Below are positions 25,421 through 42,455 of a stretch of 49,755 nt of DNA, in pieces. The stretch lies in assembly GCA_019057635.1 (NCBI GenBank), contig DXJL01000174.1, forward strand, positions 1 to 49,755, read 5' to 3'. Every line of letters starts with the position of its first letter. Position 1 is the first letter of the stretch. The notes under the pieces are model-generated. The model had not been told where the DNA came from, made no database searches, and worked only from the letters and a program-made list of their open reading frames with translations. This DNA is from Candidatus Heimdallarchaeota archaeon. Lineage in GTDB: Archaea > Asgardarchaeota > Heimdallarchaeia > Hodarchaeales > Hodarchaeaceae. The position numbers were made by a program, and so were the translations under genes.

Positions 25421-25523
25421 CGGGCCCTGTGAGATTTGAACTCACGACCTCTATTGAGGGATCATATAAGGAAAGATCCTTGCTCCGGAGGCAAGCGCTC
25501 TGTCCATGCTAAGCGAAGGGCCC
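25421..25523 (-). tRNA. tRNA-Arg(CCG) with 28-nt intron at about 41/42 (25453-25480)
   Basis: GGGCCCT/AGGGCCC acceptor, CTTGC-CTCCGGA-GCAAG anticodon arm, GTGAG-TTCAAAT-CTCAC T arm. Confidence 0.9.
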
Positions 25524-25727: not shown

Positions 25728-25835
25728 TGGCGGATCCGAGGGGATTTGAACCCCCGACCTGCGACTTAGAAGGCCGCCGCTCTTTCTAGAAGCTCTAACC
25801 ATGCAAAAGCTTTATCCTGGCTAAGCCACGGATCC
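25728..25835 (-). tRNA. tRNA-Arg(TCT), CCA encoded, D-loop intron about 20/21 (25784-25813)
   Basis: GGATCCG/CGGATCC-G-CCA; GCGGC-CTTCTAA-GTCGC anticodon arm. Confidence 0.92.
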
Positions 25836-40061: not shown

Positions 40062-40580
40062 ATGGGAAAAAGACCCGCTCACTGCTATACTCGTATTGAC
40101 CGACCACCTTTTACGCGTAAAAAGTTCATAAAAGGTGGACCCGACTCCAAAATTCGTACCTTTGATCTTGGTGCTCCTGGCACGGATTTTCCTATAGAGA
40201 TATCCTTATTCGCAAAAGAGCGATGCCAAATCTCACACAATGCACTAGAAGCAGCTAGAATACATGTTAACCGGTACTTGACAAGAAATCTCGGCCGTGA
40301 GAATTATCATTATCGTGTATGTGTCTATCCTCATCACCGCATCCGAGAAAATAAGATGATGACAGGAGCTGGAGCAGATCGTATCCAAAACGGAATGCGG
40401 AAAGCCTTCGGCAAAGTTATTAGTGTTGCAGCACGAGTTTATGAAGAAGATAGATTATTATTTATACGCACTAATCTTGAAAATATGGAAGTCGCTAAAG
40501 ATGCTCTTCGTCGTGGTAAAGCGAAATTTCCAACTCCTTGTCGTATAAGAATTACTAAGGGCGAAGATTTAGTAGCTTAA
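40062..40580 (+). CDS. rpl10e: 50S ribosomal protein L10e (uL16)
   Basis: RPAHCY, ALEAARI, RENKMMTGAGADRIQNGMRKAFGK. Confidence 0.97.
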   Translation: MGKRPAHCYTRIDRPPFTRKKFIKGGPDSKIRTFDLGAPGTDFPIEISLFAKERCQISHNALEAARIHVNRYLTRNLGRENYHYRVCVYPHHRIRENKMMTGAGADRIQNGMRKAFGKVISVAARVYEEDRLLFIRTNLENMEVAKDALRRGKAKFPTPCRIRITKGEDLVA

Positions 40581-40761
40581 CCAACAATTTTGACTACTTT
40601 TTTAAAATTTATCAAAAAGCATATCTGTATCACGTCAAATAAGCTATAAAAAAAATATATCCGAAATGAGAATGTCTTCTTATTACTAATATTTGAGATA
40701 TCCTTCAATTTAACAAAGTGATCGCAAATCTACTAGCTTCACTCGCAGCTAGTTAAACTAT

Positions 40762-40861
40762 AATCACCAAAATGATGAATACTGACCTATACTGATGATG
40801 GGTTCATAATCGGACACCACTTGAACCTATTTATGATGTCCATGTACCTCACTGAGGAGAT
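40762..40861 (+). ncRNA. Box C/D guide RNA with two SSU rRNA guides (both strands of helix 34)
   Basis: C ATGATGA 40772-78, guide ATACTGACCTATA, D' CTGA 40792-95, 9-bp internal hairpin, C' ATGATGT 40833-39, guide CCATGTACCTCA, D CTGA 40852-55; imperfect terminal stem ATCACC/GGAGAT. Confidence 0.88.
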
Positions 40862-40933
40862 ATTCTCCTACAAATCATTGAAGGATATCTCTTAAGTTCC
40901 TGTAGAGCTCGATTCCTACAATATATTCACGAA

Positions 40934-41311
40934 ATGGATTTGGAGAAGATTATAACGCTCGAATTAAAACAAGTGCTGATTCTAAGAAAAGATCTAAAAA
41001 TGTCAAAAGGAAAGGCAGCAGCTCAAGCATCTCACGCGGCTGTAAGTGCTGCGATCAAAATGATGAGACAGAACCCCACACTATTCAATAAATGGTGGAA
41101 TGGAGGCCAAATGAAAGTAGTTCTTGCAGTTGAATCTGAAACGCAACTAGAAGAGATTGAATCAAGAATAAGAAGAAGTGGTGTATTCGTCGCCAAAATC
41201 AACGATGCAGGAAGAACCCAGCTTCCTCCAGGGACGACAACAGCGCTTGGAATTGGCCCTCATAATCAATTGGCGATAGAGAAAATTACTTCTACCCTAA
41301 AACTATATTGA
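40934..41311 (+). CDS. pth2: Peptidyl-tRNA hydrolase Pth2
   Basis: RKDLKMSKGKAAAQASHA, DAGRTQ, LGIGP. Confidence 0.96.
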   Translation: MDLEKIITLELKQVLILRKDLKMSKGKAAAQASHAAVSAAIKMMRQNPTLFNKWWNGGQMKVVLAVESETQLEEIESRIRRSGVFVAKINDAGRTQLPPGTTTALGIGPHNQLAIEKITSTLKLY

Positions 41312-41339: not shown

Positions 41340-42455
41340 GTGTTCTTCTCAATGCGAATAATAAAATCTGACTTGCGTACAAATCAAGTAATTATTCGAG
41401 CTGAGTCTCCAACTGACTTATACATTTTGTCAACGATAATTGTCAATGGAGACAAAGTAATCGCTAAAACTTCTCGTCGTATCCGACGAACGGGAAGCGA
41501 AGGTAGATCGGGAGATGAAAGTCAACGCATTACAATGATTATTGGTATTGAAGTAGAAGGACAAAATTTTCAAGAAAGTGTCGCAAGTAATAGGTTACGA
41601 ATCAAAGGAACAATATTCAAAGGACCTGAACAGCATGTATCTATTGGTTCTTATCATACAATTAATGTTGGACTGTCAGATACAATAACTGTTTTTAAAG
41701 CTGAATGGTCTCGGTATTATCTGAAAATCTTAGAAGATGCAGAAAAAGCATCAAAAAAGCCGAAAATAGGGGTGCTAGCAGTGGATAACAATGATGTCTG
41801 CATCGGTATATTGGATAATTATCAACTTAATGTTTTATTTCAAGAAAGATCGGGGGTTAGTCGAAAACATTCAAAAGCAAAAGTGAGGAAGGAGCAATCA
41901 AATAGTTTTTTTGAAACAATAACGCAACTCATACAACGCAGTATCTTGCCCGAAACAAAGAATATACTCATAGGAGGACCAGGATTCGTTAAAGAGCGGT
42001 TATCTGATCATCTTAGGAATACCATGCCTAAGGAAAATCTCAACATTGTGATTGGGAGTTCATTAAGCGGAGGAAATCGCATTGGTTTATTCGAGCTCAT
42101 GAAATCAGAAGCTCTTGACAAATTAGCTAAAGATTTTCAAATACTCGAGGAGCGACGAGACATCGATGAGTTTCTAGGAAGAATAAGCAAGGGAACAGGA
42201 GATGTCGCATATGGTTATACTCATATTAATCAAATTGCAGAGACGGGAGTTATTGAAACAATCTTGATGATGGATTCTTATCTTCATGGAACTAATCAGG
42301 CTTCAGTCACAGATATACAAGAATTACTAACAATGATAGAGCAGATGAAGGGAAAAATAGTAATAATTTCCTCACAAAGTGAGGCCGCATCCCAACTAAA
42401 GACATTTGGGGGAATTATTGCCCTCCTCCGTTATGCCCTCCGTTGGGAATCTTAG
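41340..42455 (+). CDS. pelA: Pelota/Dom34 ribosome rescue factor
   Basis: RLRIKGTI, GSYHT, GPGFVKE, GGIIALLRY. Confidence 0.93.
   Translation: MFFSMRIIKSDLRTNQVIIRAESPTDLYILSTIIVNGDKVIAKTSRRIRRTGSEGRSGDESQRITMIIGIEVEGQNFQESVASNRLRIKGTIFKGPEQHVSIGSYHTINVGLSDTITVFKAEWSRYYLKILEDAEKASKKPKIGVLAVDNNDVCIGILDNYQLNVLFQERSGVSRKHSKAKVRKEQSNSFFETITQLIQRSILPETKNILIGGPGFVKERLSDHLRNTMPKENLNIVIGSSLSGGNRIGLFELMKSEALDKLAKDFQILEERRDIDEFLGRISKGTGDVAYGYTHINQIAETGVIETILMMDSYLHGTNQASVTDIQELLTMIEQMKGKIVIISSQSEAASQLKTFGGIIALLRYALRWES

Follow-up and report, generated by a model that had tools for sequence, protein, structure and literature searches.

The window, by which we mean the whole stretch of DNA analysed, covers 49,755 nucleotides of the Candidatus Heimdallarchaeota archaeon assembly GCA_019057635.1 (contig DXJL01000174.1, positions 1 to 49,755). 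Reading the sequence between the ribosomal protein gene rpl10e and pth2 reveals a box C/D sRNA gene on the plus strand, 40772–40855, in which all four boxes (C, D′, C′ and D) are intact. The locus is made up as follows (conservation refers to an alignment of 20 sequences from the genus).

40062–40580, plus strand: rpl10e, upstream gene (Pfam Ribosomal_L16/L10e)
40772–40778, plus strand: C box, ATGATGA; TGA-G core invariant, variants GTGATGA and GTGACGA exist
40779–40791, plus strand: D′ guide, ATACTGACCTATA, 13 nt; core ACTGACCTA invariant in the genus
40792–40795, plus strand: D′ box, CTGA; unchanged in 20/20
40799–40829, plus strand: D′–C′ hairpin, stem 40799–40806 with 40822–40829, loop 40807–40821
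40805–40815, plus strand: loop segment CATAATCGGAC, overlapping the GGACACC motif; complement to 16S 216–226 (E. coli 238–247)
40812–40818, plus strand: loop motif GGACACC, candidate accessory guide; GGACAC in 20/20, final C in 19/20
40833–40839, plus strand: C′ box, ATGATGT; unchanged in 20/20
40840–40851, plus strand: D guide, CCATGTACCTCA, 12 nt; core CATGTACCTC invariant in the genus
40852–40855, plus strand: D box, CTGA; 19/20 in the genus, CCGA in genome G016
40856–40868, plus strand: 3′-flank hairpin, GGAGATATTCTCC, from a single-sequence fold; a separate small hairpin, not a terminal stem
40934–41311, plus strand: pth2, downstream gene (Pfam PTH2)
41340–42455: gene with three eRF1 domains (Pelota/aRF1-like), after pth2

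The core from C to D is 84 nt long, and blastn homology begins shortly ahead of the C box and ends with the D box (40768–40855). A preliminary description of this DNA had correctly recognized the four boxes, the guides of 12–13 nt and a hairpin between D′ and C′, whose stem covaries in the genus alignment; its length of about 100 nt proves too generous, and the terminal stem it proposed is absent from both the alignment fold and the single-sequence fold. The 3′ flank makes its own hairpin instead, the GGAG...CTCC of which is limited to the five closest sequences. At gathering thresholds Rfam leaves the sRNA locus unmatched, two tRNAs being the only matches in the window. Permissive Rfam scans of the locus return generic C/D-box matches only (11–13 bits), with no archaeal family above 12.7 bits. 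Both tRNA matches lie on the minus strand, at 25421–25523 (103 nt for a 71-position model, so probably containing an intron) and at 25739–25794 (covering part of the model). An inverted repeat, CTAGCT/AGCTAG with an 8-nt loop, occupies 40733–40752, roughly 20 nt ahead of the C box.

Searches with blastn and a covariance model recover the sRNA in the same 20 of the 21 other genomes of the genus, the model also recovering it in the genome of the window. The sole congener without it is 70% complete and is missing rpl10e too, and an assembly gap is therefore likely. Boxes and both guide cores are constant apart from the C box variants and the D box of G016, and variation falls in the flanks and in the spacer and hairpin stem. 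The gene order histone, rpl10e, sRNA, pth2, three-eRF1-domain gene is kept at 21/21 genus loci; the sister-family genome G022 keeps it too. The preliminary description had proposed looking for syntenic homologs between rpl10e and pth2 in other Asgard genomes. Beyond the genus and G022, no syntenic sRNA is found within about 700 nt downstream of rpl10e in 19 genomes of other Heimdall-class families (f3–f7, eight of them from f3). The contig of G023 stops 87 nt past rpl10e. The covariance model, built on the 20 genus sequences, matches 0 of the 61 other genomes of the class outside the genus; because it encodes genus-specific guide variants and the hairpin, we used pattern searches beyond the genus.

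Two guides predicted to target opposite strands of 16S helix 34

The genome itself (214 contigs, 91.6% complete) yields no 16S match, and pairing was assessed on the 16S of three congeners (G002, G016 and G008). In all three the D′ guide forms 12 contiguous base pairs with GTAGGTCAGTAT (11 Watson–Crick and one G–U) and the D guide forms 11 with GAGGTGCATGG (10 Watson–Crick and one G–U, at its seventh position). Shuffled guides equal the observed run in 38/5000 trials for the D′ guide and 50/5000 for the D guide. Alignment with E. coli rrs places the G paired to the fifth nucleotide of the D′ guide at position 1142 of the G002 16S, E. coli 1197, on the 3′ strand of helix 34; the D guide partner is G986, E. 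coli 1051, on the opposite, 5′ strand. Both fifth-position pairs are Watson–Crick G–C. The predicted modification sites named in the preliminary description, the leading G of AGGTC and the G immediately 5′ to TGCATGG, are recovered unchanged on congener 16S, as is their placement in helix 34; the pairing to the organism's own 16S that it called for stands on the congener molecules (3/3, 12 bp and 11 bp), the own 16S being unassembled.

The genome also encodes fibrillarin, Nop5 and two L7Ae-family genes (PF01269, PF01798 and PF01248, all above cut-off). A genome-wide census by regular expression finds 20 C/D-like candidates, against three in the reversed genome; this locus ranks best of the 20, and at none of the others do both guides have long matches. 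The prediction of a dual-guide C/D sRNA for two helix-34 guanosines is well supported on comparative grounds. Assembled with L7Ae, Nop5 and fibrillarin, the RNA would form an sRNP that 2′-O-methylates one guanosine on each strand of helix 34, the D′ guide selecting the equivalent of E. coli 1197 and the D guide that of 1051. Since the two target stretches pair with each other in the folded helix, the RNP would need pre-16S in an unfolded state, and by keeping helix 34 open it may serve as a folding chaperone.

The RNA resembles known archaeal C/D sRNAs such as sR6 (Rfam RF01829) and sR43 (RF01128) in its four boxes, in a pair of guides some 12 nt long that follow the fifth-nucleotide rule and, through the genes above, in the L7Ae/Nop5/fibrillarin machinery. 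It has terminal C (RUGAUGA) and D (CUGA) boxes, internal D′ and C′ boxes, and guides that reach at least 9–10 bp with a Watson–Crick fifth pair on congener 16S. Size sets it apart: typical archaeal sRNAs are compact (about 50–60 nt, with a short D′–C′ K-loop), against 84 nt and a 37-nt spacer here. By our reading of their consensuses, the guides of sR6 and sR43 also address the 5′ strand of helix 34, but at the neighbouring G (E. coli 1050 equivalent).

Some further observations concern the rRNA genes and other candidates. A second strict-pattern C/D sRNA candidate lies outside the window in the same genome (G000:C67, minus strand, from 47379); its 23-nt D′–C′ spacer could form a hairpin (AAACAG/CTGTTT), and its guides match 16S or partial 23S over only 10 bp. 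The 23S of this genome is represented by a 3′-terminal piece alone (model positions 2721–2973; L001, G000:C70:9958-10264), and the same piece occurs in two separate copies each in G002 (C65) and G008 (C8). The 16S match of G008 (L009) spans 2225 nt for a 1478-position model, implying a large insertion, and the 16S of G037 (L006) has a 31-nt insertion right after the target stretch of the D′ guide in helix 34.

The D′–C′ hairpin and its loop

The 37-nt spacer of the window folds into an 8-bp stem and a 15-nt loop; the D′–C′ hairpin measures 27–39 nt across Hodarchaeales. Seven of the eight stem pairs show compensatory changes, 93.8% of alignment cells are paired (22–49% in slid controls), and the covariation score is reached by 0/500 shuffles. 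Insertion of this hairpin would turn the internal C′/D′ motif into a stem-closed K-turn. TACK homologs also close their spacers, by short hairpins with variable loops, so stem closure itself is not special to Hodarchaeales; judged from the genomes compared, the novelty specific to Hodarchaeales consists in the hairpin being long, with a covarying stem and a loop that is conserved. Loop length is 13–15 nt across the genus, with GGACAC invariant and the neighbouring loop positions variable.

GGACACC is the exact complement of GGTGTCC in 16S (G002 1016–1022, E. coli 1081–1087). All 20 sRNAs form at least seven contiguous Watson–Crick pairs with this segment, and 11 of them form eight or nine. A second complement involves the overlapping loop segment at 40805–40815, an 11-nt perfect match to same-genus 16S 216–226 that is seen in the subclade of the window; across the genus, eight of the 20 sequences pair fully there (Watson–Crick or G–U), six have one mismatch and six have at least three, and because of these last six we rank 216–226 lower than 1016–1022 as a putative accessory target. 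The sister-family genome G022 carries an orthologous sRNA with a 27-nt spacer and a different loop, GACTTAAC, which is the complement of the adjoining 16S 1024–1031 (E. coli 1089–1096; congener 16S, as that of G022 is unassembled). Two different loops aimed at one 16-nt stretch between the methylation sites form the main argument for accessory pairing, and on balance we lean towards a conserved loop that acts as an accessory guide through additional pairing with 16S helix 36/37, which lies between the sites of methylation.

A lesser but real possibility is that the RNA is a methylation guide whose hairpin is purely structural, closing the C′/D′ K-turn while the loop binds protein or is idle in rRNA recognition. 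A complement of 7 nt is weak evidence of pairing, the chance of finding one for a given 7-mer somewhere in a 1.5-kb 16S being roughly 9% by our estimate; the two 16S complements compete, overlapping within the loop; and the variable loops on the short TACK hairpins are in keeping with a structural role. A loop of that kind does not account well for a motif invariant in 20/20 amid variable neighbours, nor for the different G022 loop that complements the directly adjoining 16S segment.

Accessory pairing by the loop would have a counterpart in eukaryotes. Extra pairing in yeast and human snoRNAs is mostly located between D′ and C′, according to passages in van Nues et al. 2011 (PMC3116282), and the accessory-guide snoRNAs described there and in parts of PMC5389607 share with our sRNA a conserved D′–C′ element complementary to rRNA near the methylation site. 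The same passages call archaeal sRNAs compact. Compared with those yeast and human accessory guides, the element here sits in a hairpin loop, and its 16S complement is situated some 30 nt 3′ of the site selected by the D guide.

Distribution of the guide pair across archaea

We scanned 185,579 species genomes for a pattern of C box, D′ guide core and D′ box. The 62 loci found are, by title, 17 bacterial and 45 archaeal, and the bacterial loci have by eye no obvious further boxes in their flanks. Parsing of the archaeal loci gives 18 of the Hodarchaeales type and 11 compact sRNAs whose second guide addresses the 5′ strand of helix 34 (Odinarchaeota, two Baldrarchaeota, two loci of one uncultured archaeon, one Thermoproteota and five Nitrososphaerota-type); neither rpl10e nor pth2 is near any of these 11, and compact relatives have D′–C′ spacers of 3–15 nt. 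Seven loci are of a Micr-/Iainarchaeota type with the guides in swapped order (L055, L056, L077, L091, L100, L106 and L110), and in six Nano-/Woesearchaeal loci the RNA apparently lies inside a tRNA (L062, L087, L089, L097, L115 and the truncated L083). Two loci have a different second guide and one is probably a chance match.

Two of these groups have peculiarities of their own. In the Micr-/Iainarchaeota type the first guide departs from the usual motif by one mismatch (the 16S of these genomes was not recovered), and the D′–C′ spacer approximates the reverse complement of the first guide, which could be masked intramolecularly. The flanks of the Nano-/Woesearchaeal sRNAs look by eye like the halves of a tRNA around its CCT-anticodon region, suggestive of an intron-borne sRNA; ARAGORN calls no intron-bearing tRNA around them and finds other tRNA-Arg genes nearby.

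A pattern specific for the guide pair matches 27/401 sampled genomes of the Thermoproteota/Nitrososphaeria (TACK) phylum, sampled around one of the hits above, with no match for backward-pattern controls. Three TACK genomes have a 16S of their own, and in each of them it pairs with both guides. No 16S was recovered from G022, G023, G309, G088 or G089, nor from seven of the ten genomes behind the loci outside the phylum. The register of the D guide shifts by one nucleotide among lineages, our reading of the matched strings directing 18 of the 27 TACK sRNAs to the 1051 equivalent and nine to 1050; that of the D′ guide is fixed by the search patterns, and its constancy is not measurable from these counts. 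Within the Asgard phylum the pattern search matches 27/400 sampled genomes in a patchy manner (the genus, G022, all four genomes of one family and one further genome), with none in the 59 genomes of the other Heimdall-class families f3–f7 and none in the two largest families.

The preliminary description had proposed the RNA as a possible Asgard precursor of specific eukaryotic snoRNA families. An Asgard-specific guide pair is ruled out by the occurrences in Odin- and Baldrarchaeota, in TACK (27/401) and, with the guides in swapped order, in Micr-/Iainarchaeota. The pair is, as far as its occurrence tells, an old and widespread archaeal combination and no Asgard invention. With the same pair in so many other archaea, only the long middle hairpin appears special to the Hodarchaeales lineage, and any evolutionary interpretation must take in Archaea at large and not Asgard alone.

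Counterparts in eukaryotes and the evolutionary reading

Yeast has two ribose methylations in helix 34, Gm1271 (guided by snR40) and Gm1428 (snR56), as stated in passages of PMC2794176; parts of PMC8817022 give both sites as common to yeast, human, Arabidopsis and Dictyostelium, and the sections of PMC3511168 on ancestral families place the snoRNA families for both in LECA. The yeast Gm1271 guide sits before D′, as against before D in our sRNA (PMC4344503).

The D′ guide corresponds closely to snR56. The Rfam snR56 consensus reads ACACAGACCUGUaCUGA, with DdR1 and snoR25 alike, and the window guide plus box, ACUGACCUAUACUGA, has the CC pair at positions 5 and 6 as in that consensus; nine of the 12 guide positions are identical. 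The snR56 string given in the preliminary description agrees with the consensus; a full-text search for it matched no paper. The assignment of the D′ guide to the site of yeast Gm1428 and human Gm1490 in that description is supported by a register identical to that of snR56, DdR1 and snoR25. The family as a whole (snR56, U25, AtsnoR19 and DdR1; clan CL00049) has in common with the window GACCU, three further nucleotides and CUGA; its eukaryotic members are without a guide to the 5′ strand of helix 34, and common descent is not demonstrable.

For the D guide, the nearest counterpart is the Drosophila Me18S-Gm1358 consensus (RF00533), CCAUGCACCACUCUGA, which has the register of the window sequence CCAUGUACCUCACUGA and nine of 12 guide positions in common with it. 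The Drosophila Gm1358 site is one that we take to be yeast Gm1271. The proposed identity of the D-guide target with Gm1271 accordingly draws on the Me18S-Gm1358 register, on that presumed link and on the position of Gm1271 in helix 34 (PMC2794176), and finds no match among snR40 and U32 models (clan CL00054, E up to 10). As the snR56, DdR1 and Me18S-Gm1358 consensuses carry the guide cores in the same register, the comparison supports both targets as putative positional equivalents of the eukaryotic methylations Gm1428 and Gm1271.

Likeness at the level of whole models is another matter. The preliminary description had looked to Rfam for snR56/SNORD25 and snR40/SNORD32, and no eukaryotic snoRNA model comes near its gathering score. 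Over 301 nt of the window the snR56/U25 clan is without a match at E up to 10; on the 5′ half of the sRNA, DdR1 reaches 10.7 bits where its gathering value is 70, and snR56 scores 15.8 against 54 on the Odin homolog. Such sub-gathering matches show what is predicted to be an identical aim, not homology. Eukaryotic descent from this RNA, as opposed to convergence on a conserved target, is possible; with no eukaryotic model near its gathering score, sequence does not decide between the two.

That this RNA is the direct ancestor of U25/snR56 and U32/snR40, by a duplication after which each copy retained one guide, we consider unlikely. In its favour are the same two target nucleotides in the eukaryotic register, the placement of both families in LECA by the source cited above, the Hodarchaeota/Heimdallarchaeota lineage, and a stem-closed C′/D′ motif with a possible accessory guide, which recalls the eukaryotic snoRNAs of PMC3116282 as portrayed in its relevant passages. 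Against these, the guide pair is not Asgard-specific, and the pattern search leaves 373 of the 400 Asgard genomes sampled unmatched, all 59 of f3–f7 among them; the likeness is restricted to boxes and guides and is dictated by the conserved target; and Rfam scores of 10–16 bits, with none from snR40 or U32, compare with gathering values of 50–70.

Similarly improbable is an RNA that serves mainly as a folding chaperone, bridging the strands of helix 34 and directing methylation at one site or neither. Dual guides to nearby sites have been described as bridging or chaperoning in parts of PMC7994747, and the D guide is the less regular of the two, with its G–U in Hodarchaeales, an A–C mismatch in some TACK homologs and a register that moves by one nucleotide between lineages. 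Two Watson–Crick fifth-position pairs, guides of 11–12 bp and, from the passages of PMC2794176 and PMC8817022 already cited, methylation of both sites in eukaryotes speak for modification. Very improbable indeed is a cis-acting K-turn element in the rpl10e 3′ UTR or pth2 leader, regulated through bound L7Ae and yielding no free sRNA: the same strand as its neighbours, a position 191 nt past rpl10e and 78 nt short of pth2, and the archaeal L7Ae binding to mRNAs reported in PMC5539422 would suit it, but it explains neither two complete box pairs with conserved 12–13-nt rRNA antisense elements nor the same RNA in other phyla without these neighbours.

Most probably, then, the locus is a genuine box C/D sRNA gene, a helix-34 double guide that uses an old archaeal guide pair and carries a Hodarchaeales hairpin with likely extra pairing to 16S. 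A more far-reaching scenario strikes us as doubtful: a helix-34 double-guide sRNA would predate the split of Asgard, TACK and DPANN, the eukaryotic stem would have inherited it and split it into U25/snR56 and U32/snR40, and the Hodarchaeales form, its C′/D′ K-turn closed by a stem and its loop an accessory guide for helix 36/37, would be a eukaryote-like intermediate.

Archaeal counterparts are on record for very few LECA-level snoRNA target sites, as the corresponding sections of Hoeppner and Poole (PMC3511168) have it; those listed there are sR12/snR70 and four cases from Gaspin et al., and neither Gm1428 nor Gm1271 is among them. Likewise, no Pyrococcus abyssi equivalent is given for either site in the table of a plant-centred review (PMC11542601). 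Our literature search found no description of Asgard C/D sRNAs or of archaeal extra pairing, and supplementary tables of sRNA catalogues may list such guides. Within the literature searched, no archaeal sRNA is credited with a candidate accessory guide, and the hairpin of Hodarchaeales would be the first. One archaeal sRNA family, present in several phyla, is predicted to address both helix-34 sites and would thereby add two positional equivalences across domains, providing a concrete case in which inheritance and convergence of individual snoRNA families can be tested.
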